From: Vairimorpha necatrix
Taxonomy: Eukaryota
NCBI GenBank assembly: GCA_036630325.1
Contig: CP142728.1
Span: forward strand, 682,001-746,000
DNA length: 64,000 bases
Direction: 5' to 3'
The notes beneath the pieces are model-generated. The model was not told the origin of the DNA. It saw only the letters and a list, made by a program, of their open reading frames with translations, and did no database searches. The translations under genes were made by a program, and so were the position numbers. Of this stretch, positions 16,411 through 39,425 are shown one piece after another. Position 1 is the stretch's first letter. Each line of letters begins with the position of its first letter.

Positions 16411-16427
16411 AAAAAAGGGTGGAAATT

Positions 16428-18124: not shown

Positions 18125-18299
18125 ATTAAAAAATCAAAGGGGTCAAAAAAAAATCAGCATAAAAAGTAACTTCAAAAAAGTAACTTAAAAATGTCTTAAA
18201 AGTATCTTAAAAGTAACTTCAAAATGTCTCAAATATTTTATAATTGTATTACTAATATTAGTAATATATTAAAATATGTGCGCTGCCCCTAATTTTCTT

Positions 18300-18530
18300 A
18301 TGTTCTCCCTTTATCTTTATAATCTCAATTATAAAATAAAAGCCAAGTGGTTAAAATACGAATTAATAAAATTAATCTCAAGATATGTCAAGTCTTATAA
18401 AATACGAATAAGTAGAAAAATGCCAGGACAAGCATTTGTAGATTTTGAAAATAAAAAAGACATGAAAAAATTAAAGAACATTTTAGAAGATCTTTTATTT
18501 CTTAACAGGCCAATAAAAATTACAATTTAA
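18300..18530 (+). CDS. Single-RRM U1A/U2B''-like snRNP protein (76 aa)
   Basis: LYLYNLNYKIK and KMPGQAFVDF match U1A/U2B'' RNP2/RNP1 (YINNLNEKIK, KMRGQAFVIF). Start at the ATG after CCCC. Confidence 0.75.
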   Translation: MFSLYLYNLNYKIKAKWLKYELIKLISRYVKSYKIRISRKMPGQAFVDFENKKDMKKLKNILEDLLFLNRPIKITI

Positions 18531-18551
18531 AAAATAAATATTAAAGGCTAT

Positions 18552-20147: not shown

Positions 20148-20589
20148 TGTAAATTTAGGGGGTCAAGAAAAAATATTTAAAGAAATGCCTGTCAAAAAAT
20201 GAATAATTTTTCCAATATATTGAAAAAACATCTTAATTTTAAATAAAAAGTTATAGGCATTTTTACAGTAAATTTGTTATAAATTTTTTGCCTATTTGTA
20301 AATATTTTTGATCTGCGTTGATATTTCTTATAATTTTTTTTCTACACTGGATATTATTCTAGTATTAATTTTGTTTTTTTACACTAATGCTGATTTTAGC
20401 CAATTTAATCCTCAGGATTTAATATTAATTGAATAATTAATTTTGTAATCTTCTTTTAAATATTAATTTTGTTTTTTTACACTAATGCTGATTTTAGTCA
20501 ATTAAAATTTAAATAATTTTCATCTATCTTAATATTATTAGATTCTATATCTATTTTCTGGTTTAATTTCTTGGCCCCTCTTTTCTCTA

Positions 20590-21135
20590 ATGAAGAGGAA
20601 GTTGCTTCTGTCAAATGTTTCAATGTGCATAAACTGCGGCATTAATTTATTTGATACAAAATCAGACTATGAATGCAAATCATGTCACAAAAAAGTCGAC
20701 AAATATTTCGAAGTATCTCAAACACTTCTTCTTATTGATCTTCTTCTCTTCAAGAAGCCTGTCTTAAGACACATCTTATTTAATAAGACTATGTCTTTGT
20801 TAATCTTCTTGTCTTATTCTTCTTTATTGTTTATTTTGAATATTGATTTTATGCTGTATTTTATTTTTTTAATATTTTTTTGTAAATTGAAATATTCAGA
20901 TTTAAATAAAATTCTTCTTTTGAGTTATTACTTGTTTTTTAATTATTTACTGAGAGTCTGGGGATATAAAGGAAGAGAATATAAATTGGTAGTGGAATTT
21001 ATAGTCATAGTAATAAATAGTAAAGGACTAGGGTGTATAAATGGGAGTAGAGTAGAAGATAATATATTAATATGTTTTATATCAAGAATATTGTCTATAT
21101 ATTTATTTAATATAATAAAATCCTCTATATTTTAA
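20590..21135 (+). CDS. ARV1: Arv1-like ER lipid-transport protein
   Basis: MCINCG...ECKSCHKKVDKYFE...LIDLLLFKKPVLRHILFN Arv1 homology domain plus TM segments. Confidence 0.85.
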   Translation: MKRKLLLSNVSMCINCGINLFDTKSDYECKSCHKKVDKYFEVSQTLLLIDLLLFKKPVLRHILFNKTMSLLIFLSYSSLLFILNIDFMLYFIFLIFFCKLKYSDLNKILLLSYYLFFNYLLRVWGYKGREYKLVVEFIVIVINSKGLGCINGSRVEDNILICFISRILSIYLFNIIKSSIF

Positions 21136-21366
21136 ATTAACTTCATAAAATTTAATTAAAATTTTAAAATTTATCTTAACTTTATAAAATTAAATTAAAA
21201 TTTTAAAATTTATCTTAACTTTATAAAATTTAATTAAATTTTGTTTATACTTTGTTGTACGGCAATTTATTGCATAAAAAAAATGCATAAATGAATATGC
21301 ATAAAATTAATATGCATAAAATTAATAACATAAACTTAATATATATTAAATTCTTAAATTATCATT

Positions 21367-23211: not shown

Positions 23212-24122
23212 AGGGAGGTGGAAATTTTTTTTATTTATGCAAAAAAAATAATATAAACACTTTGTTTGTTTACAAACAAAGTGATTATGCAAAAATTTCA
23301 AGTATTTTTTAAGCAATCATCTCTCAATTTGTAAACTTAGTAATGTAAAAATTTAATTAATGTTTTATGACATGTGTAACATGACATCAAATTAATTAAA
23401 TGTGTTTTCTTGTCATAAAAGACAATTAGAAATTATTATTTATATTTTTCGTCATTTTTAGCAGTACCAAAAACGGCAAATAGACGACTCCTTAAAAAGA
23501 CTTTTTTCAAAAAATCGCCCTAATTTTTGGAGATCAGAGTCATAAAAAATATTTAATTTATCAGTAATTTAAAATCATTACGGATCCTATCTTTTTAAAT
23601 GCTGTAAGTAAAATATATTTATATCATTTTTTTAGTTATCTTCCTAATGTCCATCAAGAATTATTTAAAAATGTCATATATCTCTTTTTATCCATAATGA
23701 TGATTAAATTTATTGATCAAATATATTTAAAAAGGTAAGAACAACTTAAAAGAAATATTGAATTTATAAAGTTTATTTAGTTAAACATAAATACATTTTT
23801 ATATTCATTTTACTAAAGAATATTTAAAATTAATTGAACTCTGGAGGTTTTCAATTTTGACCGTTTTCTAAAGAAAATTTGGTACACTGCCTGTTTGATA
23901 AGATAAATAAAAGAATAAAGTCATTTTAAGAATAGTAAAGTGTGAAACTATATTTGAAAAAAAAATCTAAAGGGTTCTAAACAAAACCTCTATGTTTAAA
24001 ATTGTTGCTGCACTAAAAATTAAGACCCTTTACAAATATGTTTTGTCTGTTTATTTTTTAATTTACAGTTAACAGATTTTGACATTTGACGTTTAGGTTT
24101 TTTTTCAATAAAATGTTTTATA

Positions 24123-25010
24123 TCAAGCAGAATTTATTTTAAATCCAATTTCATCAATTAAAATTTCTTCCCAATTCTCCACACTAATATTTTTTTCCAC
24201 CACTGTAAACAAATGTCCTCCATTTCCCGCTCCTGTAATTTTCGACTCAATTCCCAAGCTTCTCAATTTTTTTACTTCTTTTTTCATAATTTCCGGTACA
24301 ATTCCCAAATCTTCAAGCACATCTTCTGCCCTCCTAATCAATTTATACAAATCTACTAATTTAAAATTTTTTTTTAATAATTCATAAGCTTCTTCAGATA
24401 TTTCTTTTAATTTCTCATAATTCTTTTCTTTATTATTTAATACTTGTTTAATAATTTTTTTAGTATCTTTAGGTATTTTACTATTAAAAATTAATATTTT
24501 ATAATTATTAATATATTCAGTAGACATTTTCTCTACTTCTTTTTCTTTAAATGATATCATTCCGCCGTGTTTTATTGTAGCAACATCTACTCCCGAACTT
24601 TTACCATGAAAAAAATCTTCTATTAGATTTGATTGGGTGAAAATTTTTTCAGAATGTAAACTTAGGTTTAAAAAGGTAGAAAACTTTTTAAGATACAAAG
24701 ATGTAGAAGTTAAAGTAGAAATAGCTGCACTACTTCCCAGTCCACAACCTAAATGACAGTTTATTTTTATCATAGCATTGTGTTTTTGATCTTTACTTTC
24801 TATTTTCAAATTGTCGTCAAGTGACAATATAAACTTAGAATTTGTCATGTCTTTGATCAAAATTTTTATATCTGGTAGGTTGACAAAATCTTCTGGTAAG
24901 TAAAGATTACAATATTTATTTATACATAGAGAAATACATCTACCGCCCATTAAAACAGAATGTTCACCGAAGAGAATAAGTTTTAAAGGACTTGTTGCTA
25001 CATTGATCAT
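24123..25010 (-). CDS. ERG12: Mevalonate kinase
   Basis: PLKLILFGEHSV, GCGLGSSAA, HGKSSGVD and KITGAGNGG GHMP motifs. Confidence 0.9.
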   Translation of the reverse strand: MINVATSPLKLILFGEHSVLMGGRCISLCINKYCNLYLPEDFVNLPDIKILIKDMTNSKFILSLDDNLKIESKDQKHNAMIKINCHLGCGLGSSAAISTLTSTSLYLKKFSTFLNLSLHSEKIFTQSNLIEDFFHGKSSGVDVATIKHGGMISFKEKEVEKMSTEYINNYKILIFNSKIPKDTKKIIKQVLNNKEKNYEKLKEISEEAYELLKKNFKLVDLYKLIRRAEDVLEDLGIVPEIMKKEVKKLRSLGIESKITGAGNGGHLFTVVEKNISVENWEEILIDEIGFKINSA

Positions 25011-25556
25011 TTGGGGAAAAAAATAATAATTTTTTAATAATAATTTATTTAATTTAGAAAAATAGTTTTTTGGGAATAATATGAGTTTGTTTGTTTTGAT
25101 ATGATTTTTTGTTTGTTTATAATTAGTAAATTAAAAACTGACATTCTAGAATTTAAGCCACAAGGATAGAAGATAAAAATAAATAATTTATTATGTGTTT
25201 ACTCATTATGTTATTTAGTGATATATTAAAATTTAATATATAAACATCACCTAAAAGTGAATATTAATATATTATAAAAATAGAAGGGAATTAATTATTT
25301 AAAAAGAGATGTCATATTAAAAAACGAATTTACTTGTTATTAATTAAGAATATAATTGAGTCTTATTAAAATCAATAAAATGTTAAAAGTCAAAAATCAA
25401 TATATAATTGAGAAAAAAAATTTATAAAAAAATAGGTAAGGTCGCTTTTCTTAATTTTCCTTAAAATGGTGTTCTAAAATTATTTATTATAAAAAACATG
25501 CCAAAGAAGACTTTGTCTTAAAACTATAAATTTAAATGAATCATTTTATTAAATAT

Positions 25557-27686
25557 TTATTCTTCGCTAGTCTGTTTAAATGTTAGAGGTTCAAATTTAT
25601 ACCCAGTTCCTTTATAAAATTTACTATGAAATTCTATCCAATTAAGTCTAAGCGCATGCAAACATGCGCCCAATCCTTCTAGACCTATCAAAAGACCAAA
25701 AGTCAAAAGAATGAAAATTGGAGATAAAAATATTTTCAAAAATATAGAATTATTTCCACCAATAGTAAATTCTACTAAAACTTTTGTCAATTGTGCATGG
25801 GCAAGAGAAACGGCCCACAATCTCAAATAAGAAGAAGAATTAGAAATTAGACCAATTCCGAATTCTATGGTGTGTATTCCAGAATTCATCCAGACGTCTA
25901 AAGAATCATCTCCTTTGACGAGTTTCTTTTTAAAAAGATAAATTGGTTTAGCGAAGAACATCCAAGGCAAAGCGATAAGAAGAGTAAGAACAATGCATAA
26001 TTGGACATAAGCTTGGCCGGGGTAAAGAGGATTCTTGACTGTGAAAGGACTGGTGTACATTAAAACAAGAGTAGAAATCAGAGAAGGATTTTCTAGAGAT
26101 AAATCAATATAAAGCCACTTAAAAACAATAAGGAAGACTAAATAGCCTAAGAAAGTAGCATAAGCAAGTGCCTGAGGAATGAGAACACAATACATGTCCA
26201 CATAATCAGAGAAATGAAAAGCATTTAGAAATGACAGAACAACCCCCAGGCCCATGTGTAAAAAGCCAATAATAATTGACATCTTCATTTTGACAGAATT
26301 AGTAAATTCCATAGAATTTTTCGCCTCATGCCAGTCGGGATCCAAGCCAAAAGGATAAATGTCATCTACAGTCGTCCTATTTCTAATTCTTCCTCCAAAA
26401 ATATCAATAGGGAAAGAAGTCGAGTCAGAATAAAGAAACCCAAAAAGGATAGAACTTAACCCGCATAAAAATAAAACATACCTGCCATCAATTAATAAAG
26501 CAAAAGACTTGTACTTTTTGTATAAACTTTCCTTGTGCTTGATCATGAAGCAAGACATAAAAACGAGAATCAACCCATGGAAAACATCCCCGAACATTAC
26601 GCCAAATAACATGGGAAACAAGAAGATCATAAAAATCGCAGGATTAATTTCTCGGTACGAAGGGACTCCGTACACATTTATCAAATCTTGGAAAACTTCA
26701 GTGTATTCGTTAAGCTTAAAAGACGAAGGAGGTGTTTCGTCAACCTTAGAATTCTTTTCAAATACAAAATGCCAGTCAGAATTTTCTGAAGATTCTGACA
26801 TTTTTTGTAATTTAAAACAGTCGTCTTTTCTAATCCAAGCTTCTCCTATGAGACAATCTCTTCCTTCATCGAAATTAAACTTATTTAAAGTTCTATAAAT
26901 TTTATATTCTTTTTCAATATAATATTTCAAAGTCAAATAAAGTCGAGAAATCTTCTCGACTTCATTTTTCATTGCTTCTTTGTTATGATCTTCTACACTT
27001 TCAATTCTACTTATAACACTTGTAAGTGCTAATAAATTCTTCTTTGGTTCATTATATTTTTCCATATCTAAAATTCTTCCTCCTAAACTTACGAAAATCA
27101 TTCTAATTTTATCAAATGCTTCTTTCCCATGTGTAAAAATTATAAAAATAACTTTTTTATGTTTATCACTGTCTCTTGTTTTTACTACTAAATTCCTTCT
27201 AAATGCTTGATGAAGAATTTTCTTCATTAAAAATTTCTGCTTTCTGTCTACAATTCCTGTAATAAATTCAAAACTTATTTTACTTGAATCTCCACTAACA
27301 TCTGAAACAAATCTTTCCATATCTTCTACCATATGTAAATCTTCTTTTAATTTCATTAAATTTGAATGTGTATCTTTCTTTATATTTTTTAATTGTACCA
27401 TTCTATTATAATATTTATTTATGCTTTCTTCTACTGTATCTAAATCACTATTCTTCATTTCTGATAATTCAACATTTTCTACTTCTTTACCAAGAAAATT
27501 AAGTCTAGATTGTAATTTCTCAATATGTTTTAATTCATTAGTATAAAGGAGTTTGTCTGATTTAACATTGTCATTTAAATCTTTGAAATGTGTTATTTCA
27601 TTATTACCAAGTTCTGTAATGCATTTTCTTGCATTATCTTTACTTAAATATAAAGTTACAAATTCCATTTCTTCGCTTCTTATCAT
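25557..27686 (-). CDS. VPH1: V-type ATPase V0 subunit a
   Basis: IRSEEM, YREINPA, MFGDVFHG, NSVKMKMS, SNSSSYLRLWAVSLAH, LHALRLNWIEF. Confidence 0.95.
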   Translation of the reverse strand: MIRSEEMEFVTLYLSKDNARKCITELGNNEITHFKDLNDNVKSDKLLYTNELKHIEKLQSRLNFLGKEVENVELSEMKNSDLDTVEESINKYYNRMVQLKNIKKDTHSNLMKLKEDLHMVEDMERFVSDVSGDSSKISFEFITGIVDRKQKFLMKKILHQAFRRNLVVKTRDSDKHKKVIFIIFTHGKEAFDKIRMIFVSLGGRILDMEKYNEPKKNLLALTSVISRIESVEDHNKEAMKNEVEKISRLYLTLKYYIEKEYKIYRTLNKFNFDEGRDCLIGEAWIRKDDCFKLQKMSESSENSDWHFVFEKNSKVDETPPSSFKLNEYTEVFQDLINVYGVPSYREINPAIFMIFLFPMLFGVMFGDVFHGLILVFMSCFMIKHKESLYKKYKSFALLIDGRYVLFLCGLSSILFGFLYSDSTSFPIDIFGGRIRNRTTVDDIYPFGLDPDWHEAKNSMEFTNSVKMKMSIIIGFLHMGLGVVLSFLNAFHFSDYVDMYCVLIPQALAYATFLGYLVFLIVFKWLYIDLSLENPSLISTLVLMYTSPFTVKNPLYPGQAYVQLCIVLTLLIALPWMFFAKPIYLFKKKLVKGDDSLDVWMNSGIHTIEFGIGLISNSSSYLRLWAVSLAHAQLTKVLVEFTIGGNNSIFLKIFLSPIFILLTFGLLIGLEGLGACLHALRLNWIEFHSKFYKGTGYKFEPLTFKQTSEE

Positions 27687-27949
27687 TTGTTTTCTTTTTG
27701 TTTCACGGTTTATTTTTTTTTATAAAACCAATGATTTTTGAAACACCAATAAAATTATGCAAAAAATAATTATTTATAGGAATTTGTTTGTTGAACAAAC
27801 AAATTCCATTGAAATTATGCAAATAATTTTGAAAAAAATCTTGACTTTAAATTTTTAAATTAGTTTTTCAAATAATTTTAAAAACAGTTCATTTATTATA
27901 TGTTACTTTATTAATAATATGTGCATTATGAATAGTAATAAATTTGGTT

Positions 27950-28237
27950 TTATATATTCTCACTAATTTTTTGTAAATCTGAAATGCTCAATCTTGATGC
28001 TTCACTAATTTTCTCTAAATTTTCGTCTTTTTCTAATTCTATTGTTCTTATGGCTATTCCTTTAAGAGAACAAGTTTCCATGTCTAAAATTGGAATTTCA
28101 CTAGTCTGAATTTCTTCTAAGCACAAATTTAAATATGGATCAATACTGATCAATTTCCCCTTTATATTCATACCATTTTTCAGTATAATTGAGATTTTCG
28201 AATTTATCTTTGTTTTGAAATATTCAAAAAAGAGCAT
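27950..28237 (-). CDS. LSM2: Sm-like protein Lsm2
   Basis: MLFFEYFKT...LKNGMNIKGKLISIDPYLN...EASR. Start moved to MLFF after CCC. Confidence 0.85.
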   Translation of the reverse strand: MLFFEYFKTKINSKISIILKNGMNIKGKLISIDPYLNLCLEEIQTSEIPILDMETCSLKGIAIRTIELEKDENLEKISEASRLSISDLQKISENI

Positions 28238-28335
28238 AAGATAAGAAGGGAAGGAAAATCCAAGAAGATTGCATAAACAAAAAAAAAATATTAGCATAAA
28301 CAACAAGAAGAAAAAATATTTCTTTCGTCTCCAGC

Positions 28336-28511
28336 TTAAATATCTGACATTTCTATTAACCATCTTTCAAATAAAAACAAACAAATACAAAATTTGAGAG
28401 TTTTAAATACCTGACATTTCTATTAACCATCTTTCAAATAAAAACAAACAAATACAAAATTTGAGAGTTTTAAATACCTGACATTTCTATTAACCATCTT
28501 TCAAATAAAAA
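28336..28511. repeat. 67-bp tandem repeat, ~2.6 copies, in the LSM2/SHP1 divergent promoter
   Basis: CTGACATTTCTATTAACCATCTTTCAAATAAAA recurs at 28344, 28411 and 28478. Confidence 0.9.
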
Positions 28512-28564
28512 GAATTTAAAATTTAATGTATTCTTTTTTTATAAATTATCAAACATTTGCCCTC

Positions 28565-29251
28565 ATGGATCAACAAAGTAGAATAAGAAAGATCATGTCA
28601 ATGACAAATTGTTCATATGATCAGGCTCTTGAGTCTGACAAGGAATCCAAGGGAAATTTAAATCTCGCCATTGAAATGGCCAAGAAGAAATCTACAGAAT
28701 TGTACGTAGGAGGAGGAAGCAGTGGCTTAGCAGTAGAATCAAGTAAGAAGAACGAGATAGTAAGTTATAAAAATGGTTTATTAGTTAATAACAAGTTTTA
28801 TGATTACTCAGAAGACGACAACTTGAGACTCAAAAAAATGTTAGAAAATAACGAATTTGACGCCGGCGTCTTGGGAGTCCACGACGACAAGGCAGAAGTA
28901 ATTTTCAGGAATTGTGAAAATGAAGAATACCAAAAAGAAGAGGAAATTAAGCCTAGGACGTACGAGGACAATAAAAAGCATGTCTTGTCTTTTGACTCTA
29001 ATTTAGAGGTTTCTTGTCCTGACGAAATTGTCATGGATGAGAATGGGGAAGTTAAGTTTAAATTTTTAGTAAGCGGCAGACGAGTGTCTGTTTTTATGAA
29101 TGAAAAAATGAAGATTTCTGATTTTTATGAAGAATTAAAGAAATACACAAGTAAAAATGTGGTACTTACAAAAGGAGACAGAAAAATCAACCCGACAGAT
29201 GATGTGAATATTTTAAAGAGGAACATGTTTATATTAAAAGAAGAAAAATAA
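28565..29251 (+). CDS. SHP1: Shp1/p47-like Cdc48 cofactor (UBA-like, SEP, ubiquitin-like)
   Basis: UBA-like N-terminus, YVGGGSSGLAV, SEP-like SYKNGLLVN...YDYS. Start at MDQQ after CCC. Confidence 0.75.
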   Translation: MDQQSRIRKIMSMTNCSYDQALESDKESKGNLNLAIEMAKKKSTELYVGGGSSGLAVESSKKNEIVSYKNGLLVNNKFYDYSEDDNLRLKKMLENNEFDAGVLGVHDDKAEVIFRNCENEEYQKEEEIKPRTYEDNKKHVLSFDSNLEVSCPDEIVMDENGEVKFKFLVSGRRVSVFMNEKMKISDFYEELKKYTSKNVVLTKGDRKINPTDDVNILKRNMFILKEEK

Positions 29252-29348
29252 AACATTTTATAATATAAATTTGTATTAATATATTTGTTTGTAAAATTTT
29301 TATTTATATTTGTCCATTTTGTCTTTTTTTATGCTGCTTTCTTGAGGT

Positions 29349-30509
29349 TTAAGATTTAAATTTACTTATTTCAAAAATATAAGCCAAATTATTTAGAATT
29401 ATTTCATTCATCTTTTTCTCTGTTTTATTTATTTCTTCTGATAATTCCAATATTAAATTTCTTATTCTTTCTAAATTTTCAGATCTCTCAATTATTTTAA
29501 TTATCACGTCTGTTATGCAGACTTTAAATCTTAAACATATTTTATTACCAAATAATAAATTAATCATTTCTCTATCTAAATTTGATAATGTTTCAAATTT
29601 AAAATTGTGTCTTTCAAATTTATAATTTTGTCTTTCAAATTTAGAATTTTGTCTTTCAAATTTGAAATTATGTCTTTCAATTGTAGAATTTTGTCTTTCA
29701 AATTTAGAATTTTGTTTTTCAAATTTAAAATTTTGTTTTTCAAATTTAGAATTTTGCTCTACTAGAGAAAATAAAGCTTCGCTTTTTAATAAATCAAATC
29801 CATCGTAATTCAAAATTATATGGAAATATTCTAAAGATTTCTCTCTTAAAATTCTACTTGTAGAATTTTCTATAAGAAAAGGCAATTTATTGAAAACTTC
29901 TTCTAATCTCTTTTTATTTTCATCTTTAATAATTTGTATACCTTCTTGTAAATAATTAATCTTATCTTTATAAATCTTAATATTATTACTAATTTTCAAT
30001 TTATCATCAAATTTAGATTTTAATTTTATTAATTTTTTCTCTTTAAAACATTCCTGCGGCATAAAACTTTTAAATTTTTCAAAACTCCTGAAATTTGAAA
30101 AATTAAAATTTGAATCTTCAAATAACGAAGCAGTCAAAATTAAAGCGTGTTCGTAAATTTCATGTAGTGGATTTTTCATGTGTTTGGAAATTCCTTTTAG
30201 AAATTTTGAAGGATCAAATTTATGGAATTTTAAAGAATTTAAAATTATTTTTAAAATTTTTTCACTAATTTTTATATCTGTGTTTTTGTAAAATATTTCT
30301 GATAAAAATGTTTGGAATTGATTTATGTCTTTTATATTTTTAAGATCTTCGAGATTGTCGAAATTTATTTTTTCTATTTTTAAATCTTGCATTTGAACAT
30401 CTATAAATTTGTCAAATCTAAAATTATGGTCATTAATTTTGACATTTTCTGCTAAGAAATTTTGAATTTCATGAAATTTAAAACTTTCTTTGGTTTTTTG
30501 ATTATGCAT
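29349..30509 (-). CDS. Hypothetical protein with 7-aa FE(K/R)QN repeats
   Basis: 386-aa ORF with CCC-ATG start. Confidence 0.7.
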   Translation of the reverse strand: MHNQKTKESFKFHEIQNFLAENVKINDHNFRFDKFIDVQMQDLKIEKINFDNLEDLKNIKDINQFQTFLSEIFYKNTDIKISEKILKIILNSLKFHKFDPSKFLKGISKHMKNPLHEIYEHALILTASLFEDSNFNFSNFRSFEKFKSFMPQECFKEKKLIKLKSKFDDKLKISNNIKIYKDKINYLQEGIQIIKDENKKRLEEVFNKLPFLIENSTSRILREKSLEYFHIILNYDGFDLLKSEALFSLVEQNSKFEKQNFKFEKQNSKFERQNSTIERHNFKFERQNSKFERQNYKFERHNFKFETLSNLDREMINLLFGNKICLRFKVCITDVIIKIIERSENLERIRNLILELSEEINKTEKKMNEIILNNLAYIFEISKFKS

Positions 30510-30848
30510 GGGAAAAAATGGGCAAAATATTTTATGTTAAAAAATCGACAATTTTCATTTGTAAAATATTTTATGTGTTAAAAAAAACTCCCGATTGTAA
30601 TAATAATTTAAATAAAATATTTCATGTTTAATACTTTATTTTAAAAATTCGTCAATTTACATGTTTTTTTTTGGGTGGAATATTTTATGTTAAATACTTT
30701 ATTTTTAAAAATTCGTCAATTTTTTGCTTATAAAAATTGGGTGGATTTTGCCATGCTAAAATTTGTTCAATTTTTATTTGTGCTTAAAATTCTGCATATA
30801 ATTTTAGTCCTTGTTTTTTTTTATGTCTTGTTTAAAAATAAGAGGTTC

Positions 30849-31712
30849 TTATTTTTCTACTGGTTTACTGCTCATTATACAATTCGCATCTACACTTCTA
30901 GCGTATAAATCTTCTATATCTTCATTTACTTCCTTATGGTAGTGTCTTAAATGGTAATAAAGACCATTTTTATTTTTATACTTCTTTTTACACTTATCAC
31001 TGAAAGGACAGAGATATGGTTTAATCGCCTTCTCGTTCTTCTCTGAGTGCACAAAAGTTATGTGATATTTTAAACCATTTCTTGTTGTGAAGGTACTTTC
31101 ACAATTTTGACAAATTAATTTATTTTTTTTAGATGAAGAAAATCTGATTTTATACATTTCATCTCTATTGTCATTCGGAGACTTGTTTTTGTCTGCCACT
31201 TTATTTTTTACTAAATCTTTATTTTCTACAGTTTTATCATTTACATCTTTACTTTCACTATAGAAATTACAATCATTTACTTGTTTAGTTTCACTATAGA
31301 AGTTATAATCATTTACTAATTCTTTACTATCAGTAGAATAAAATTTAAAATAATTTTCTAATTCTTCAGTTGTGCTATTTTTAATTTGAAAGTCGAGCAT
31401 TTCGTCTCTCAAATTATTTTTAATGAATGACAAATCGCCACTAATACACCAATGAATTAAATTCTGTATTTTAATTAATAAATATTCGTCGTTACTAGTG
31501 TAAATTCCCAACAAATCTCCAATTTCTTCTATTGAAGGTATTACAGGACTTTTTTGCTTAACTTCTTGCCCGGTACTTAACATAACTAATTTTTCGGCCG
31601 CCAGTAGTTCATCATAAATTGATACATAAAAATCATCTTTTTGTGCATTATTAGGCTTTTTATCAGTGCCTACTTTGATTATTTTTTTATTTAAATCTTT
31701 TTTAGTTAACAT
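30849..31712 (-). CDS. C2H2 zinc-finger protein (Sfp1/JAZF1-like fingers)
   Basis: CQNCESTFTTRNGLKYHITFVH and KPYLCPFSDKCKKKYKNKNGLYYHLRHYH. Start at MLTKK after CCC. Confidence 0.8.
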   Translation of the reverse strand: MLTKKDLNKKIIKVGTDKKPNNAQKDDFYVSIYDELLAAEKLVMLSTGQEVKQKSPVIPSIEEIGDLLGIYTSNDEYLLIKIQNLIHWCISGDLSFIKNNLRDEMLDFQIKNSTTEELENYFKFYSTDSKELVNDYNFYSETKQVNDCNFYSESKDVNDKTVENKDLVKNKVADKNKSPNDNRDEMYKIRFSSSKKNKLICQNCESTFTTRNGLKYHITFVHSEKNEKAIKPYLCPFSDKCKKKYKNKNGLYYHLRHYHKEVNEDIEDLYARSVDANCIMSSKPVEK

Positions 31713-33521
31713 TTTTAAGGGATGAAATTTTTTTTTAAATAGTCTTAACGACAAATCAATTAAACTTATAGAATGAAAAAAGGAGAAAGATAAGGAATAA
31801 GGAAATAGAACACGTGAATATTTAATATATTTTTTTAATTTATCAAATTCATATTTTTAAATTAACAAGTAAACATTTTAAATTATTTAGTAGGTGAAGA
31901 ATTAGTACAATAAAGAGTTTAAGAATAGAAATGTGTCTAAGAAATGATACAAATCAAGTATTAAATTAAAATGAATAAAGTTTTGGAATAATATGAGTTT
32001 AATACATATTTTTAAGATAAACAAATTTTTGATTTATACAAAATGTGAATTTTTTAATTTAAAAATACCTTATTTTTCATAAATCAAAAATTTTAGAAAA
32101 AAAGTGAAATGTAAATAAATAAAAGAAAGTAAGAAAATTTTCTAAAAAGTTCTAGTTCTTAAATTAGGAATATTAAGAATATTCTTATTTTTCATAGAAA
32201 CCTGTGCGTCAAATATCTCAAAAATATTGAAAATTTAAATATTTGACATTCAGGTAAATTGATATTTTTCTGATTGCCTCAAAGATAATATAATTCAATA
32301 AAAAATATTTGCTCTTAATTCCAAAGCAGAAATATGATGATATATTTTTAAAAAATTTGATCTTTTTCAAATGTCAGTAAAGAAATTATTCTTTGAATAT
32401 TATGATTCATATAAATTAAGAAATATTACTAAAAAACTTCATAAATCTATAAATTTGTATATTGCATGTAATATTGATATTTGAATTGCTATATTTGACA
32501 ACGTGTTTTTGATTTAATTATAAAATATTGTATAGAAGTCAAAGTGAGTTTAAAAATGTGTTATTTTGATTAAATATTACTTTTATTTGGAATGTACAGA
32601 GTTTCATAATTCTAATGTAAAAGTCAAAAACAACATCTTTTTCCTAATATTTTAGCTCAACCCATTTATAATGACATCTAAATGGTAACGTAAGATACGA
32701 ATGATGTTGGTTTGACAGATGTCACTAATCTCCAATGTTTATCCTTACCCTGCCAAATCGTACAATGCGGGCTGCAGAGATTTAAATATTTAAAGAGCTC
32801 TAAAATAGTTTGCAATGAGCTTATGGTATCATATTTATACATTGAAAACTGTTGCGTCAATCTTCAAGGAAATAAGATTTACTGATTGATGCACAATAGT
32901 TTGTATATGTGTTGTTAAAATCGTGTTGTAACTAATAGTAGGCGTTGAAAAAAATGCGAATTAAAAAAAGATTCGAAAAAGTCAAAGGTTTCGATGTCAT
33001 AACAACGAAGTATTGTGTTGGGCAAGCATTTGCACTTTTATTTAAAAACAATATTAACATTACCAAGAAAACGATTCTTATAAAGACGTATCAAATTGGT
33101 ATTGATCACTACTTTCTGTAAATTTATAAGACTATCAGTCTCACTAGATCTATTTCACGCACATTCACATTACGTCCGAAACTCTTGTCTGTGAGCAAAA
33201 TAACAGTAGTGTTACTATATATAAATATACTAGCACATTAGATATGATTTTTTAACAAATCGAAGCTTATAAGATATATAAGTTCTGATTATTGGGTAAT
33301 CTTTTGCTTTAAAAAAAAGTTTTCGATGTAAGTTAAAATCTACTGGTGATAAAATTGAGATTTTTCGAAATTATAAATAAAGATAACAATGTTATTGATA
33401 TCTTAAAATATGACAGATGTGACCAAAGTACCCAAGATTTAATACATAAAAAACCAAACAAAGTTCTTTTGAAGTTTTTTTTAGTAGCACAATACTGGAT
33501 GTATTCTGTCCTACTAGTAGA

Positions 33522-34597
33522 GGTATATGACCGTTTGGAACCCGTTTTGGATAAAATTCTACGCATTGAAAATTTAAAAGGACATCTCTTACAAAATAGG
33601 CAATTTTTGTTGAGTCAGGTGAGATCTTAGTGATGAAATGTTGTTGAACTTGGAAATAAATAAAATTTTATGATGCCGAGACAGCGTGTGTCTTTCTGCC
33701 ACGCAGTTCATTGATAAAACCACTTTTTTTGTGCTTTTTCAACTCTGAAAGGTCAATGAATTTAATTAGAAGGATAAGACTAGTGACAAATATGTTTGGA
33801 ATTGTGCCAACCCTTGTAGCATCATTTTCTACGAGAACGGATTCTTTTTTAGAAATACCAAAATAAGTTCTTATAAAATCATAAGAATACTACATAAGTA
33901 TCAAAAGACTTTTTTAGCCCGTTATTTCAAACTATCTTGAACTAGATAGAACCCTCGCAAGTACATGTGGTTTGCTTTGCAGAGATTGCAAAATCGAAGA
34001 AGTAACTAATAGTAGTCAGAGATTGAAAAGTCGTGGTGAGTTTAGCATCTTTAAAGAAGTGGGTATCGACGAAAGTCTATTTTTCGAGCCAAATAATCGT
34101 AATAATTATACCATAGGTCAGTGGTATGTAGAAGGAGTGGAAAGAGGTTCTAAAAATGCCTTTCTCGCTATTTTAGCTAGTAAAATACTGCTACATTCGT
34201 TGGGGCAATACAAGATAATGTACTACCTGGTCCTATAGTGATCATTGATCAATTGAGAGCATATAGTGCCGCATTTAGACTTTTCACAGGGATGGAGCAC
34301 AGGACTTTGAATCACACCAACAATTTCGTAAACCTTAACGATCCCGAGACACAAGCCCAACAAATATAAGGATTTTAATCTTTTTAAGAAAGATATGCTC
34401 TAGACATGGAATAAACCAAGACGAACACTATAAGTACTCTCTACAGTTTCTCTGGGCTCATCAAATGTCGAAAAAATCAACGTATAAATCGTCTTCTTTT
34501 TATTCGAAATAAATCGTAAAGTCTCTTTTTAGAATTTAAATTTTAATTTTCCCGTTATATATATTTTTGTAATGCGGGTTCCAAAAGGTCATCTGCC
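33522..34597 (+). mobile_element. Decayed Merlin (IS1016/ISXO2-like) DNA transposon, 1076 bp
   Basis: 23-bp TIRs GGTATATGACCGTTTGGAACCCG and GGCAGATGACCTTTTGGAACCCG (20/23 match). 8-bp TSD CTAGTAGA/CTAGTAAA. Broken transposase: VGIDESLF, QWYVEGVERGS, LPGPIVIIDQLRAY, HRTLNHTNNFV. Confidence 0.9.
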
Positions 34598-34605
34598 CTA
34601 GTAAA

Positions 34606-36090
34606 TAATCGTGACTTATCAGCGAAAGCTTTGTGTTGATACACAAAGAACCAGGTCAATTTCCGCCTAGGCCAAATTATTTCCTGTGCCAAAGAGGCAC
34701 TGAAATTTTTATACAATAATAGTGTCTTAGGTAATCGTCAAGTTGATCAATGAAACTTGTTGTAAAGTCTAGCTGCAAAGTGTACAATTAGTTAGAACTA
34801 AGCTCAATGCTAAAATTGGGTAGTCTCAATGACTTGATTGTACGCAAAGTGCTATGATGGCCATACTTTGGGTGTATATATCGAATATTCGATGAGATTA
34901 GAAGAAAGTGTGGGAGATCCCATGACTTTATTTTACAGATCTTGCAACAACTGGCCGAAACTTGTCTCTAAAAACTATTATGTGCAGGGAAAGATATGGG
35001 GTGTAAAGAAGCATGTGCGAGTTGTAATCAAAAGTAGAAATGCCTGTTCACTTAGAATATGTTTATGCTTGATTATTTCATCTCATACCTGAAATTAGTC
35101 ATCTATAAATAATTCTCGAGCGACATGAATACGTTGGGAACTAATTCCACCGAAGTCAAAGTCCAATGGATAAGGCGGAGCTTGCTGCACAGACAAGTTT
35201 AATGGAGGGAGTTTAAGTAAGTGAGAATCAAAGAATATTTGAGGTGCTCTTAGCACAGTGGTAGAATGCAATGCTTCCATTGAGCAATGGCTGGGTTCGA
35301 TTCCCGGGCACCAAAATTGTTTCTACTTTCTATGATGCAGTTGGAACAACTCAGATGATAAAAATGCCCACGATAATCATTAAGTTGATTCAATGAAACT
35401 TGTGTGTATCCAGCCACAAGGGGGTTAGCATCTAGTGTATAAACGCACTTCAAAGCCAAAAAGCAGTATCATCCTTTGGTGACTTAATGATACATAAAAG
35501 TATCTAATGGGTACGGCCTAGTTGGAGCATATGGCTGGTACACTCTAGAGTGTGATCCTAGAGCTAACTAGAGACTAGACGAAGTAGGGCAATAGAAGGT
35601 TTCGTGGACCCTATCCTATCAGATTCTGTAACACGGTGGCCGAAACTAGTGGAAGACTGGTGGTCAACGCAGCCCAATAAAAACGCCGGGCTGGTGATGT
35701 GGTGTAGTAAGGAGCCTTGGGTGCAATAAAGATGATTGTAAAGTCCTTTGAGTCAGTACTATGATGTCTATCCTCGGGTTATAGATAACAATGCCCGTTA
35801 AGTATATCCGCTGTGAGGTCACTCTGGACGCGATTTGAGGTATAAATGGAAAGTGCTCTCCTGGAGCCAAAGTCCATTGGATAAGGCGGAGCTTGCTGCA
35901 CAGACAAGTTAATGGAGGGAGTTTTAGTGAGTATGAATCTCACAGTGCCAGTTAATGAGGATCACACCCAAATCCCTCTGGTCCCTTTGTAAGGTTTCTC
36001 CCTACCTCTTACTTGCAAGAAAAAAAATCACAGAATATTCGTTGGATGAAATTCAAAGTCCCTTCTCTTTCAAATTTATAAGTAAGTTTT
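34606..36090 (+). mobile_element. Outer, more degenerate SINE-like element, split by the inner copy (34606-35239 plus ~36040-36090)
   Basis: Colinear similarity to the inner element (AAGTTGATCAATGAAACTTG, GGCCGAAACT, near-identical 58-bp block at 35157-35214). Degenerate tRNA-like head at ~34611-34673. Ends approximate. Confidence 0.6.
35241..36025 (+). mobile_element. tRNA-headed SINE-like retroelement, ~790 bp, with LINE-like 3' tail and A-tail
   Basis: A box TAGCACAGTGG (35251-35261), B box GGTTCGATTCC (35294-35304), 3' hairpin GTGAG-TATGAAT-CTCAC (35927-35943), A-run at 36020-36027. 14-bp TSD AATCA[A/C]AGAATATT (35226-35239, 36026-36039). Confidence 0.75.
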
Positions 36091-36324
36091 TTTCTATGTT
36101 TACTAATATTAATTTCTATCTTTCTAGTCTAGATTTATTTGCTTGTCCAGTAAATTTTTTTATTTTTGGGCTTGCATAAATTAGGAAATTTTAAATACAA
36201 ATTTGCATAAACTTTAAAATAAATTTATCAAAATTAAATTCTTCAAAACTTTTAGCTTTGAAAAACTTTACCTGATCATATAGAATTAATACGTATAGTT
36301 TAAATTTTATTATAGTGTCATTTT

Positions 36325-37128
36325 TTATTTAAAAAATACTTGCTCTAGTTTATATTTCAATAATATTAAATAAACATGCATAAATGTTATCTCGGGCCAT
36401 AAAAAATTACAGAAAAATATATTTGCTCCTCTACAACATTGTAAGATTAAGAAATCTGACAATCTTTTCTCTCCACTAGTACGAATTACTAAATCAACTT
36501 CTCCTTTAAATTTGATTCCATTTTCTACTTCGTCTTGTGAACTGTACGCTATGAATAAATTTACAATTATTCCTTGATTATTTTTACTTTTTTCTACTAT
36601 CTTTTTCAGATTATTACTTATATTTTCAGGTAATAATTCCATATTTCCTATGACTCGTATTTTATAAGATTTGGGGTTTATTTCATGAGTAAGAAGTTGT
36701 AAAACATTTTGTATTTCTTTATGACTCCTGTTAAAATTTTTTATACTGAAGCAATAAAAACCCACTTCTGATAATTCTAAATATTGACATAAATTTATTA
36801 TCTCCCACATTTTCTTTAGTCCTTCTTTTTTTACTTGTTCTACATTTTTGTTCATTTTTTTCAAGTATCTTCTGTTTCCATCGGCGATGAAAGCAATTTT
36901 GAGATTTTTGAATAATTTTATTTTTTTATAAAGTGCGTAAATTAATAAACAAAGAATTGGGAAGAATTGTATTAAAACGGGGTAGATATTTGTAAGATAT
37001 TTACATTTATATAGAAATCTAAAGAAAGGTAAAAAATATTTAGAATTAATAATCGACTCTAAATATTTTATAAGAAATATTTTTAGAAATTTCAGTTTAC
37101 AAGTCTTTGTATTATTCGATAAATTCAT
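36325..37128 (-). CDS. RER2: cis-prenyltransferase (dehydrodolichyl diphosphate synthase)
   Basis: IAFIADGNRRY, FSIKNFNRS, IRTSGEKRLSDFL, LWPE. Start at MNLSNN after CCC. Confidence 0.9.
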   Translation of the reverse strand: MNLSNNTKTCKLKFLKIFLIKYLESIINSKYFLPFFRFLYKCKYLTNIYPVLIQFFPILCLLIYALYKKIKLFKNLKIAFIADGNRRYLKKMNKNVEQVKKEGLKKMWEIINLCQYLELSEVGFYCFSIKNFNRSHKEIQNVLQLLTHEINPKSYKIRVIGNMELLPENISNNLKKIVEKSKNNQGIIVNLFIAYSSQDEVENGIKFKGEVDLVIRTSGEKRLSDFLILQCCRGANIFFCNFLWPEITFMHVYLILLKYKLEQVFFK

Positions 37129-37239
37129 AAGGGCGAAAATAAACAAAAAGGTCAAATAAAAATTAATATACATAAATTTACAATACTAATCGTAAATATG
37201 ATACTAAAAATATTAATAAATAAATTTATTAAATACAAT

Positions 37240-37390
37240 AAACATTTTACTTTTTGATTTTGAACATTTTACACTTCGAATTTGAACATTTTACATTTTG
37301 AATTTGAACATTTTACTTTTTGAATTTTACACTCTGAATTTGAACATTTTACACTTGTTTAAGATATTTTTACATTTTGATTTAAACTTT
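37240..37390. repeat. ~21-22 bp degenerate tandem repeat (TTTGAACATTTTAC core)
   Basis: Directly visible, about 6 copies. Confidence 0.75.
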
Positions 37391-37392
37391 TC

Positions 37393-38982
37393 TTACACTA
37401 AAAATCCTCCAATTTGATTTCTAGTCACTTTTTTATCTTCTGCGTCTAAACAAGAGGCTATTTTCTCATACCTCTGCAATTCTTCTTCCATATCCCGATT
37501 TTTCTGATTATATTCCTCATAAAGACTCTCTAAATTCTCAAGATCTATTCCACTCTTTCCTAACTCATTACTAGTCTTTATTAATTTACTTGATTCATTC
37601 TCAATCTCATCATTATATTTCCTAAGTGTCTGTTCATAAACTTCATATTGCTTCTCAAGCATCTCCAATTTATTAGACTCATTTTCTAATAAATTCCTGT
37701 ATCTTTGTACTTCATTCTTAGTAATTCGTATTAGCGAAATGACTTGATCTTTCTTGTCATTAATTTGTGCACTGTTCTTATTTAAATTTGATATGTGGTT
37801 TTTATTCTTTTTTACATTATTTGTTAGGTTGTCTTTAGTCTTTTTTATATTTTTAATTTGGTTGAGAATGTTTCGTAACTTCTCTTTGTACGAATTCATC
37901 TCTAGAGATAATTTGTCTTTATTGGTTTTTATATCTTGTAATTTCATATTTATATATTCTTTACGATTATTTATTGCTTTCAATAAATTTTGTTGTTCTC
38001 TGAGTTTTGTATAGGCAAGTTTGTTTTCGACCTGATCGAGCATCGATTTATCGTCAAAATGCGGCGGGTCGGGTTTATAACCAGAAGTAAAAGGTGGTTT
38101 ATATTCAGTTGAGAATGGATCGGGCTTATTATTCTGATTTTTTATTAATTCATTTTTGAATGAATTTATTATTGCGTTCATCTTGGGGAAACCTCTGTTT
38201 CTGATCAGATCAGGAGAATCATCTCTTTTTCTTGATCTTATGTTTTTAAATGGTGATTGATTTGCAAAGGACTTGTTCAATAATTTGTCAAAAGGGTCGT
38301 TTGACAACGAGCTGTCTCTAGTGAATGGACTGTCTCTGGTAAATGGAAGTTTATTTGCTAGGGAGCTGTCTCTTGAAAATGGATTATCATTTAATAACGT
38401 ACTATTAGGCGAAAATGGATTATCATTTGAAAATGATCTATTTGGCAAAAATGGATTATCATTTGAAAATGATCTATTAGGCGAAAATGGATTATCATCT
38501 AACAATGACCTACCTGCTCTTGACAACGACCTATTGCCACTTGACAAAGGTCTACTCTTACTTGAAATTGGAATATTACTCGATACTGATCTGTCGAGTG
38601 CCAATAAACTATCCCCTGTAAATGGACTTTCACTTGCCCGCCTAGTTCGCTTTTGTTTATTTTTTCCCTTATTTACACTATTTACTATGTTTTTCAATTC
38701 TTTTACGCTTTTCTCATATTTGTCAATCTGCTGTGATAATTGACCTCGTTCCTCAATTGGCACATCAATCTCCACTCCTTGACTTGTAGACTTTCCTTTA
38801 CTGGAAATTCGCAAATTTTTATTTTCATTAAAAACCACTAATTCGCCGTCACTTGGCTCGACTTTCTTTTTTAAAGTATTCACTAGATTGAGATTTGCAC
38901 GCGGTGTATCATTGTTCGTAATGTTTAAATCGTCTATAACTAGTATTTTCCCGGATATATATAAAATCAAAAATATTATCAT
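37393..38982 (-). CDS. Putative secreted protein with Ser/Pro-rich 9-aa repeats and a long C-terminal coiled coil
   Basis: Hydrophobic N-terminus MIIFLILYISG, DNPFSPNRS-type repeats, heptad-rich C-terminal half. Confidence 0.75.
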   Translation of the reverse strand: MIIFLILYISGKILVIDDLNITNNDTPRANLNLVNTLKKKVEPSDGELVVFNENKNLRISSKGKSTSQGVEIDVPIEERGQLSQQIDKYEKSVKELKNIVNSVNKGKNKQKRTRRASESPFTGDSLLALDRSVSSNIPISSKSRPLSSGNRSLSRAGRSLLDDNPFSPNRSFSNDNPFLPNRSFSNDNPFSPNSTLLNDNPFSRDSSLANKLPFTRDSPFTRDSSLSNDPFDKLLNKSFANQSPFKNIRSRKRDDSPDLIRNRGFPKMNAIINSFKNELIKNQNNKPDPFSTEYKPPFTSGYKPDPPHFDDKSMLDQVENKLAYTKLREQQNLLKAINNRKEYINMKLQDIKTNKDKLSLEMNSYKEKLRNILNQIKNIKKTKDNLTNNVKKNKNHISNLNKNSAQINDKKDQVISLIRITKNEVQRYRNLLENESNKLEMLEKQYEVYEQTLRKYNDEIENESSKLIKTSNELGKSGIDLENLESLYEEYNQKNRDMEEELQRYEKIASCLDAEDKKVTRNQIGGFLV

Positions 38983-39425
38983 AATGGTTTGTTTACAGGC
39001 GAATTTATTATTATTTGTTTCATCAAATGTTTAAAACAGTAAAAACACCTTTTCGAAACATTGTAAATATTTTTATTTGTATTGTAATTATTAGAACTTT
39101 GCCTGTTCTATGTGAAAAATGAAGTCATAAAACTAATAAACATTTCTAGGGAAATGATAATTGGTCAATGGAAATGGTGTATTTGAAACGTATCACACTA
39201 TAACAATGCGAGTGAAATTGAACTGGTGTGAATGTTTTACAGTAAAACTGTGCGGGGTATTTTTTATATTCTAATTTAATATTATAAAAATGCAAATTTA
39301 TTAATAAAACATTTATATTTATACAAACAAAGTCTTTATACCTTTTTTGGTCTTTGTAGGTACAAATTTTTCTATTTGTTTTTTTTTATAAAATCAATAG
39401 TAAATTTTTTTTTTTAATCCCCTAA

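Follow-up and report, generated by a model that had tools for sequence, protein, structure and literature searches.

A tRNA-like sequence with a long non-coding continuation and an A-run at its end lies between protein-coding genes in the DNA analysed here, a stretch of 64,000 nucleotides (the window), and raises the question of whether it is a SINE and, if it is, which reverse transcriptase moves it. The original prediction called it a SINE, and the evidence supports this for the Pol III-type tRNA head, the non-coding body, the A-tail and the duplicated target site. We consider the sequence at 35243-36027 very likely to be one copy of a many-copy tRNA-derived SINE family. The gene content of the window is consistent with a reduced, intron-poor, AT-rich eukaryote, and genome reduction among eukaryotes is classically exemplified by microsporidia. 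We could not find a tRNA-derived SINE family described for microsporidia; the available text of two microsporidian transposon surveys (PMC4202319, PMC7313128) names LINEs, LTR elements and DNA transposons, and the term 'SINE' occurs in it 0 times.

Anatomy of the element

The element is 785 nt long and consists of a tRNA-like head, a non-coding body, a tail with a hairpin, and a run of eight A's (A8). The features of the locus, including related sequences elsewhere in the window, are given below.

35226-35239, + strand: upstream copy of the 14-bp target-site duplication, AATCAAAGAATATT, probably inside the tail of an earlier-inserted copy
35243-35313, + strand: tRNA-derived head with a degenerate cloverleaf, an A box, a B box and a CCA end
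35314-35864, + strand: non-coding body with 43% G+C
35865-35911, + strand: block near-identical to the upstream copy (46 nt, 96%)
35912-36019, + strand: 3′ tail module including the GTGAG/CTCAC hairpin, common to other variants of the element, with an R2-3′UTR-like part at 35916-36003
36020-36027, + strand: A-run (A8), its final two A's within the duplication
36026-36039, + strand: downstream copy of the 14-bp target-site duplication, AATCACAGAATATT
34656-35225, + strand: earlier-inserted, divergent family copy, beginning at what is left of the B box, covering the body and reaching the first tail hairpin, where the newer copy interrupts it
36040-36105, + strand: probable remainder of the earlier copy's tail past the nested insertion (alignment in register, moderate support)
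10451-10616, + strand: possible third copy, a decayed and internally shortened 3′ remnant made of two colinear same-strand segments in another intergenic region
36087-36093, + strand: T7 run in the flank that may stop Pol III, some 60 nt downstream of the A-tail

The tRNA-like head with its two boxes and CCA end was present where the original prediction had placed it. An A-box-like TAGCACAGTGG occupies 35251-35261, a B-box-like GGTTCGATTCC lies at 35294-35304, and CCA follows at 35311-35313. The head matches the Rfam tRNA model over its full length (1-71) with 18.1 bits against a cut-off of 29 (E 0.11). ARAGORN reports 0 tRNA genes at default settings and draws a cloverleaf for the head only at the relaxed setting -ps80, with an acceptor stem of 7 pairs, one of them G-U, and D, anticodon and T stems of 3, 4 and 3 pairs. 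Of the two arms said to fold non-canonically, the anticodon arm does so, being shortened like the D and T arms, while the acceptor arm does not. Contigs representing other copies carry AG or AA after 35305 (5 + 2 contigs in the public sequencing run X1 and 1 in the run X2), and in our reading these two extra bases would restore a regular 5-bp T stem. As judged from its letters, the head is shown to be a degenerate tRNA derivative with intact-looking A and B boxes. Since it scores under the cut-offs of both tRNA finders, we infer its promoter function from the two boxes only. A functional tRNA gene next to an unrelated repeat, which the original prediction had named as one of the outcomes that would speak against it, is ruled out by the ARAGORN and Rfam results together with the family-wide presence of the head in contigs.

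The body is GC-richer than its surroundings and non-coding, as had been claimed. Its G+C fraction is 0.432 at 35317-35864, rising to 0.465 at 35865-36019, compared with the window's 0.272 and a value of 0.214 in the downstream flank. No open frame on the sense strand of the element exceeds 53 aa, and no Pfam match was obtained among its 9 longest frames. The predicted tail string was located at 35914-35944, and the GTGAG/CTCAC stem forms part of the minimum-free-energy fold. The only run of at least four T's inside the element, TTTT at 35922-35925, falls within the tail; it could act as an early Pol III stop in some organisms and in that respect counts against the SINE reading. The usual length range of SINEs lies at or below 785 nt, making this element a long one, which likewise weighs against the SINE reading.

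Insertion site and other copies of the family

The predicted 14-bp flanking duplication with one mismatch proved to be real: its two copies adjoin both ends of the element and are identical at 13 of 14 positions, with TGA (35240-35242) as the three bases separating the upstream repeat from the head. Shuffling the two flanks (41-42 nt) 2000 times produced a run of this length with no more than one mismatch in only 3 cases. When one position of the 14-mer was left free, exact matches across the whole window were confined to 35226-35239 and 36026-36039. These values refer to the single copy at which the duplication was examined. Inverted repeats joining both element ends were absent among the 25 listed of 38 found between 33000 and 38000, and a MITE or other DNA transposon was rejected as a candidate on the lack of terminal inverted repeats among those 25. 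Elsewhere upstream, a transposase remnant in three pieces had relatives only by exhaustive HMMER search and gave no match in Pfam, NCBIfam or a word-indexed protein search.

A stretch of 76 nt 5′ of the head (35154-35229), overlooked in the original prediction, repeats the element's own tail (35865-35939) with 90.8% identity and a spacing of 711 nt. Therefore the duplicated target sits within another family copy. This second, divergent copy lies directly upstream at 34656-35230, where nhmmer aligned it with element positions 55-698 (E 7.4e-20); a local alignment of the bodies only scored 92, compared with a shuffle maximum of 43, and the divergent copy retains a remnant of the B box. The bodies of the two adjacent units are ~59% alike, and the 76-nt repeat is 91% alike. 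Past the newer element, 36044-36105 aligned with 35959-36014 in the expected register, with 12 of 2000 shuffles as good and a rank of 4th among 639 window 100-mers. Thus, the newer copy was probably inserted into the tail of an earlier copy belonging to a divergent subfamily, a nested insertion for which support is moderate. The flanks of the earlier copy share just a 10/11 AT-rich match (34539 / 36105), too weak to be called a duplication. The insertion site is probably the tail of another copy, between protein-coding genes, and not a 28S rRNA gene; no rRNA was listed in the Rfam search of the whole window.

A possible third copy is represented by two short segments some distance away. Positions 10451-10492 are identical to 35748-35787 at 33 of 42 positions (0 of 500 shuffles as good), and 10564-10616 match 35922-35975 at 40 of 55 (1 of 300 shuffles as good); nhmmer at E up to 10 did not recover this remnant. 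Counting the possible third, the 64 kb hold three copies of differing state in two separate intergenic regions, among eukaryotic housekeeping genes.

The abundance of the family outside the window was assessed with contigs of X1 and X2, which were mapped onto a 4-kb stretch at 80% likeness or more, giving 503 pieces for X1 and 295 for X2. A single-copy locus, another outcome that the original prediction had set against itself, is not what we observed: relatives exist both in the window and in many contigs of the two runs. Position 35987 in the tail is covered by no fewer than 43 distinct contigs from X1 and 18 from X2 that carry another base there. The summed contig depth of X2, a quantity not equal to copy number, jumped from 5.8 (35108-35241) to 489 (35242-35375), stayed at 290–640 across the element, and was 2.3 after 36045. 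The same measure in X1 was 15,000–170,000 over the element versus 40.2 for a contig of the flank with 3 differences from the window in 636 bases. At 36027 contigs leave the window's flank: 36 from X1 enter a long stretch of nearly nothing but A, and 6 from X2 enter poorly agreeing AT-rich sequence. The bin containing the head and the neighbouring body bin had summed depths of 23,818 and 23,909 in X1 and of 489 and 638 in X2. As the head and the adjacent body are equally deep in both runs, the head is a regular part of the family.

The 3′ tail module and a proposed route of movement

Contigs that diverge from the window just 5′ of 35912 were found in both runs (2 in X1, 5 in X2), and 35912 is the end of 3 of the 15 X1 joints listed, a fourth joint being known by its inserted letters only. 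The last ~116 nt of the element appear to behave as a separately shared module. The original prediction had seen a LINE-like 3′ end here and had named the R1 group of LINEs. The LINE likeness is supported at sub-threshold level, and through a family other than R1: positions 35916-36003 match the R2 3′UTR element of Rfam (RF00524, R2_retro_el) with 22.1 bits against a cut-off of 38. E was 0.009–0.011 in searches of 246–286 nt, corresponding to about 0.2 when scaled to 5 kb. Of the 212 model positions, the match takes in 90-204 and lacks a 32-nt insert of the model; it comprises an outer helix and two hairpins with no non-standard pair flagged. RF00524 was not listed in Rfam searches of 5 kb or 64 kb, in which long inputs are filtered more strictly; the whole-window search, with no R2 match of any kind, is hence no fair control. 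The sole R1-like trait that we observed is the 14-bp length of the duplication, seen at one copy and non-specific as a length alone.

The minimum-free-energy fold shows the same helices as the R2-like alignment. Folding stability did not exceed that of shuffles for either the tail (z 0.66) or the whole element (z 0.75), so the structure has no thermodynamic support. The best-supported variant positions of the tail (35934, 35954 and 35987) are all unpaired in the R2-like alignment; such an outcome has about a 1-in-4 chance and is therefore not evidence on structure. Two patterns were scanned for exactly, a 24-mer within the conserved block and a 26-mer within the tail; both had 0 matches in metagenome contigs and in prokaryote genome contigs, and the 24-mer had 0 in viral contigs. 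Reverse-transcriptase domains numbered 0 among the 35 window ORFs scanned, which were 34 of the 43 listed with at least 120 aa and one piece of 106 aa; a partner LINE was not seen among them, which is a point against the SINE reading.

Because the tail module is common to variants with differing upstream parts and weakly resembles the R2 3′UTR element, the RNA to which R2 proteins bind, it is the likely recognition signal; the specific link to R2 has, in our judgement, about even odds. A plausible cycle would begin with Pol III starting at the internal promoter of the head, reading through the body and tail, and probably terminating at the T-run in the flank. A LINE-encoded reverse transcriptase of the same cell would then bind the tail module (35912-36019), the A-tail or both, nick the target and convert RNA into DNA by target-primed reverse transcription, with staggered nicks yielding the 14-bp duplication. 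The family itself may stem from a template jump in which a reverse transcriptase left a LINE-derived RNA for a tRNA. Template jumps onto tRNA have been reported for R2 (PMC3414825), and such jumps have been proposed as a general origin of SINEs (PMC5786205), as far as the available text of both papers goes. In its fullest form, which we put forward tentatively and hold to be possible at best, this scenario would have the 3′ module of a Pol III-driven SINE be a true 3′UTR signal of an R-element (R2- or R1-type). The microsporidian would carry, or would once have carried, an animal-type R-lineage LINE free of rDNA specificity and most likely received from an arthropod host, and a tRNA template jump would have been followed by amplification to hundreds of copies.

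The likeness to the R2 3′UTR could instead be due to chance, with the SINE moved through its A-tail by a 'relaxed' LINE of the L1/Tad/Jockey type, an explanation that we take seriously without expecting it to be the right one. The A-tail is the only 3′ feature in all copies seen, as the contigs running into long A's illustrate, and a 14-bp duplication suits endonucleases that make staggered nicks. The sub-threshold score and scaled E of the R2 match, as well as a tail fold no more stable than shuffles, point in the same direction. Against a chance match, the R2 model ranked first of 4227 families, the next matches in the same search having E of 1.4 and 3, and its three helices align without a flagged pair. 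Moreover, the match lies on the sense strand and ends at 36003, 16 nt before the start of the A-run at 36020, which is the place expected for a LINE 3′UTR signal, and its start at 35916 coincides with the independently seen boundary at 35912.

We regard it as unlikely that the family is mainly that of an animal host, the copies in the window having been acquired horizontally or the contig being a chimeric assembly. The G+C of the whole element (0.447) is indeed far above that of the window, the closest match among RNA families is an element of animal LINEs, and transposon exchange between microsporidia and animals is documented in the available part of PMC4202319. The contigs of X1 and X2 total 104 and 268 million letters, far above a microsporidian genome; host DNA is thus probably present, and some of the copies counted could be the host's. 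What speaks for residence in the window's genome is the occurrence of three differently decayed copies in two intergenic regions among housekeeping genes, and the lower G+C of the earlier copy at 34656-35225 (0.366). An X2 contig of about single-copy depth (2.9) also spans the earlier copy, differing from the window at 33 of 511 positions over 34564-35074, and the X2 flanks past 36027, very AT-rich like the intergenic DNA of the window's genome, weakly agree.

It seems improbable that Pol III plays no part, and that the element is a SIDE-like derivative of a LINE with an internal deletion, or a 5′-truncated LINE 3′ end, carrying its tRNA head as a template-jump passenger. Where R2 copies have tRNA sequence at the 5′ end, this has been ascribed to template jumps (PMC3414825, available text), the body is long, and the summed depth in X1 climbs toward the 3′ end from about 24,000 to 170,000, as from 5′-truncated copies. 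Yet in X1 as in X2 the head bin is as deep as the body bin, the A and B boxes are conserved despite a decayed cloverleaf, and the divergent upstream copy still has its B-box remnant. Finally, the two head-to-tail units could be explained by tandem duplication at the locus or by an LTR-type element with the 76-nt direct repeats as its borders. This reading has next to no probability; it was rejected on the X2 depth profile, in which the repeated unit begins at the head and not at the upstream repeat, and on the A-tails in which copies finish. The unequal likeness of bodies and repeat and the separate remnant 25 kb away can be added.

Comparison with known SINEs and R-elements

Many copies of a tRNA-derived SINE ending in long A-tails would show that a reduced genome has seen activity of a LINE reverse transcriptase and of parasitism driven by Pol III, and the family would supply insertion markers for strain and species typing. 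If the tail is truly R2- or R1-like, it would in addition provide a handle on transposon traffic between the parasite and its arthropod host and on the loss of rDNA specificity. For gene insertion by means of R2 proteins, a natural short RNA module that recruits an R2-type enzyme would be of interest as well (PMC13708176, as far as the available text goes).

In its general plan, the element conforms to the definition of SINEs given in the available text of PMC7245038 and PMC5786205 and resembles 'stringent' pairs of a tRNA-SINE and a LINE tail: it has a small-RNA head with an internal promoter, a non-coding body, a tail putatively recognised by a LINE, an A-rich end, a duplication and many copies. 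It differs from such pairs by its length of 785 nt, its apparent microsporidian host, and its nesting in the tail of another copy. With Bov-tA type SINEs, for which a template switch adding a small-RNA head to a LINE-derived non-autonomous unit has been proposed (PMC5786205), it shares the outline of its possible origin, although the LINE origin of its body and tail is only putative. In the survey reported in the available text of that paper, RTE and Vingi LINEs were the only ones to have contributed SINE bodies.

The tail shares with the R2 3′UTR element (RF00524) the sense strand, the position at the 3′ end, and primary motifs including the UUUUAG stretch. In contrast to it, the tail reaches 22.1 bits where 38 are asked for, matches part of the model, and belongs to a copy outside the 28S gene. 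A poly(A) tail that varies likewise terminates R2 of D. willistoni (PMC3414825, available text). R2 has been reported from animals, and the word 'fungi' is absent from the available text of PMC5035012. For R1-type insertions, the accessible part of PMC3414825 describes 14-bp duplications and tandem arrays in which the 14-bp repeat stands between successive copies, a layout that the two adjacent copies here resemble.

The R2 SIDEs and R2/R1 hybrid SIDEs of Drosophila (PMC3414825, same text) are, like this element, short and non-autonomous, keep a LINE 3′ end, and use LINE machinery. They differ in having a 5′ ribozyme, in not depending on Pol III, and in residing in rDNA, whereas the element described here has a tRNA-type head and lies between protein-coding genes. 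An R2-type partner of the family would need to have lost rDNA specificity and dispersed, as R2-lineage elements can do according to the available text of PMC5035012, where the non-target-specific R2NS-1_SMed and R2NS-1_CSi are described. These two are autonomous flatworm elements, likened to the present case by description only.

Anatomy of the element and its tRNA-derived head

The element at 35243-36027 represents a genuine tRNA-derived SINE family. Every part named in the original prediction, i.e. a head, a GC-richer body of ~550 nt, the quoted tail with its GTGAG/CTCAC stem, an A-run and a flanking duplication, is present in the sequence.

Features of the element
35226-35239, + strand: 14-bp duplication, 5′ copy, AATCAAAGAATATT
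35243-35313, + strand: tRNA-like head, 71 nt, ending in CCA
35251-35261, + strand: A-box-like TAGCACAGTGG in the head
35294-35304, + strand: B-box-like GGTTCGATTCC in the head
36020-36027, + strand: A8 run at the 3′ end of the element
36026-36039, + strand: 14-bp duplication, 3′ copy, AATCACAGAATATT

The ~550-nt stretch 3′ of the head has a G+C content of 43%, compared to 27% for the window mean and 21% for the downstream flank. The longest sense-strand open frame is 53 aa, no Pfam matches were obtained for the nine longest frames, and none of the 25 inverted repeats listed (of 38 found) joins the ends of the element. The duplication adjoins both ends; when the two flanks were shuffled 2000 times, a run of this quality arose just 3 times, and the 14-mer with one free position has exact matches at only these two sites window-wide. 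The only T-run of at least four within the element (TTTT, 35922-35925) belongs to a conserved UUUUAG motif, and a T7 run is found 60 nt beyond the A-tail.

ARAGORN with default settings detected no tRNA genes in the whole 64-kb window, and the all-family Rfam search of the window returned just three weak, chance-level matches. A search limited to 111 nt was needed for the Rfam tRNA model to match the head; the match covers the full model at 18.1 bits (cut-off 29) and E 0.11. At 80% of its threshold ARAGORN draws a cloverleaf whose D, anticodon and T stems have just 3, 4 and 3 pairs; its acceptor stem has 7 bp including one G-U, so the acceptor arm had been wrongly described as not folding canonically. 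Given the low Rfam score, the lack of a default ARAGORN match and the short stems, the head is a decayed tRNA derivative and not a working tRNA gene.

Dispersed copies and a shared tail module

Contigs of four public sequencing runs (X1-X4) were aligned to 33500-37500 at 80% likeness. X1 contains this organism (3 base differences from the window in a 636-nt contig that spans the prenyltransferase gene in the flank) and X2 a relative (flank contigs ~5-7% different); X3 and X4 gave almost no matching contigs on this interval. In total, 503 pieces were aligned for X1 and 295 for X2. Alternative bases were carried at 35987 by 43 and 18 contigs, and at 35760 by 18 and 8 (X1 and X2, respectively). 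Beyond 36027, 36 X1 contigs run into an almost pure A-run, and 6 X2 contigs into AT-rich sequence agreeing poorly with the window. From the count of different contigs and from the loose ends with A-tails, we conclude that the element belongs to a many-copy, dispersed family ending at 36019-36027. Summed contig depth, which does not equal copy number, may include other organisms and was used only to place repeat-unit boundaries, rises in X2 from 5.8 (bin up to 35241) to 489, 638, 405, 290, 360 and 299 over the element and drops to 2.3 after it; in X1 it lies at 15,000-33,000 for the head and the body, reaches 110,000-170,000 in the final 270 nt and falls to 6 after the element. These steps coincide with the element coordinates originally proposed. 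The anticipated dispersed copies were also recovered, as many relatives with differing 3′ flanks found by window search and in X1 and X2 contigs; the duplication was read at one copy.

In contigs of other copies AG or AA is inserted after 35305 (5 + 2 in X1, 1 in X2). By our reading, a regular 5-bp T stem would result from the two additional bases, which the copy at 35243-36027 has thus probably lost.

Two X1 and five X2 contigs diverge from the window immediately before 35912, where three of the 15 X1 joints listed, plus a fourth tabulated separately, also end. These breakpoints indicate that the last ~116 nt is common to variants with differing upstream sequence, as would be expected if a LINE protein recognised the tail.

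When the tail alone was compared with Rfam, the R2 3′UTR element (RF00524) was the best of 4227 families (35916-36003, sense strand; E 0.011 with 286 nt and 0.0093 with 246 nt searched, ~0.2 when rescaled to the 5 kb first examined), followed by matches with E 1.4 and 3. The match spans model positions 90-204 of 212 with no non-standard pairs flagged, starts 4 nt past the module boundary and stops 16 nt before the A-run; motifs common to tail and model include UUUUAG. It was absent after filtering from Rfam searches of 5 kb and 64 kb. The outer helix of the match and its two hairpins recur in the minimum free energy fold of the tail, a fold whose stability is not unusual relative to shuffles (z 0.66). 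The LINE-like character originally ascribed to the tail has sub-threshold support (22.1 bits vs cut-off 38), from R2 rather than from the R1 group named there. From this resemblance we consider the chances of an R2-related signal about even; an R-element 3′UTR signal is an unproven, testable suggestion.

Probable nested copies and genomic surroundings

An earlier copy just upstream (34656-35230) corresponds to element positions 55-698 (nhmmer, E 7.4e-20), and its local alignment with the element without tail scores 92 (shuffle maximum 43). The 76 nt directly 5′ of the head (35154-35229) are 90.8% identical to 35865-35939 of the tail. Body similarity between the two copies is only ~59%, with many gaps, while the 46-nt block 35865-35910 is 96% alike, which rules out uniform decay as the cause. 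Either the earlier copy belongs to a divergent subfamily sharing a conserved 3′ part, or the 46-nt block underwent gene conversion between neighbours. The 14-bp repeat sits inside the earlier copy's tail, and 36044-36105, past the newer copy, aligns with 35959-36014 in the expected register (matched by 12 of 2000 shuffles; rank 4 of 639 among window 100-mers). The likeliest reading, with moderate support from this arrangement, is that the newer copy inserted into the tail of the earlier one.

The earlier copy is also covered, at 34564-35074, by an X2 contig with 33 differences in 511 nt; the depth of this contig (2.9) is roughly that of single-copy sequence, and the related X2 organism may thus have the earlier insertion as well.

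A possible third copy, decayed and unreported by nhmmer, lies at 10451-10616 in another intergenic region as two colinear, same-strand segments.

Segments of the possible third copy
10451-10492, + strand: segment 1, vs 35748-35787, 33/42 identical, 0/500 shuffles as good
10564-10616, + strand: segment 2, vs 35922-35975, 40/55 identical, 1/300 shuffles as good

The window carries compact, uninterrupted housekeeping genes, including YIF1, VID27, Dus, V-ATPase subunit a and myosin V, as well as an INO80-like helicase of 865 aa; of the 35 ORFs scanned, 14 lack a Pfam family. This content fits a microsporidian. Two ORFs without a Pfam family, 29349-30536 (-) and 37393-39030 (-), contain internal peptide repeats, FKFE(R/K)QNSKFE-like in one and NDNPF(S/L)PN(R)SFS-like in the other; an Atlas search with the former gave weak helical-repeat look-alikes only.

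The element itself is located in a small transposon nest. An exhaustive HMMER search gave 10 relatives (E <=0.001) for an ORF piece at 33918-34235; in two of them (P0006 and P0009, 322 aa each) the ISXO2-like DDE transposase domain PF12762 scores above cut-off, and PMC4202319 reports this domain for microsporidian Merlin transposons. Immediately 5′ of the SINE copies, 33918-34509 is a frame-shifted IS1595/Merlin-type DDE transposase remnant, and an X1 summed depth of up to 1388 marks it as also a repeated element. At the edge of the nest, a depth of 3173 at 33500-33633 vs 49 in the next bin (X1) suggests another repeated sequence. Beside the prenyltransferase gene, six intergenic tandem units (37222-37378; period 22 nt, one step of 14) seem to vary in number, since X1 contigs omit 80-83 nt there (37255/37258 to 37339).

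Proposed mechanism and comparison with known elements

The anatomy, duplication, A-tails and multiplicity of the element are observed directly. Pol III transcription would initiate at the internal boxes of the head, a LINE reverse transcriptase would recognise the tail module and/or the A-tail, and target-primed reverse transcription with staggered nicks 14 bp apart would follow. LINE families are tabulated for many microsporidia (PMC4202319, Table 1), so partner LINEs are available in principle. The family could plausibly have originated via a template jump onto a tRNA; PMC3414825 reports such jumps for R2, and PMC5786205 proposes this route for the birth of SINEs generally.

In the literature proper, as distinct from paper supplements, Repbase and Dfam, in which such a family may be catalogued, we found no named microsporidian SINE family and nothing on 'SINE-like' elements in microsporidia. 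The word 'SINE' does not occur in PMC4202319 or PMC7313128, 0 SINEs are reported for Microsporidia sp. MB (PMC11585130), and SINE appears solely as a RepeatMasker category in PMC13702014. The element is of a known kind, in a group for which we found none described.

PMC5035012 describes R2 in animals only, including two flatworm families that are not target-specific. Outside the melanogaster group, R1 insertions show 14-bp duplications and occur in tandem arrays with that repeat between the copies (PMC3414825); the 14-bp duplication is the one R1-like trait seen in our element.
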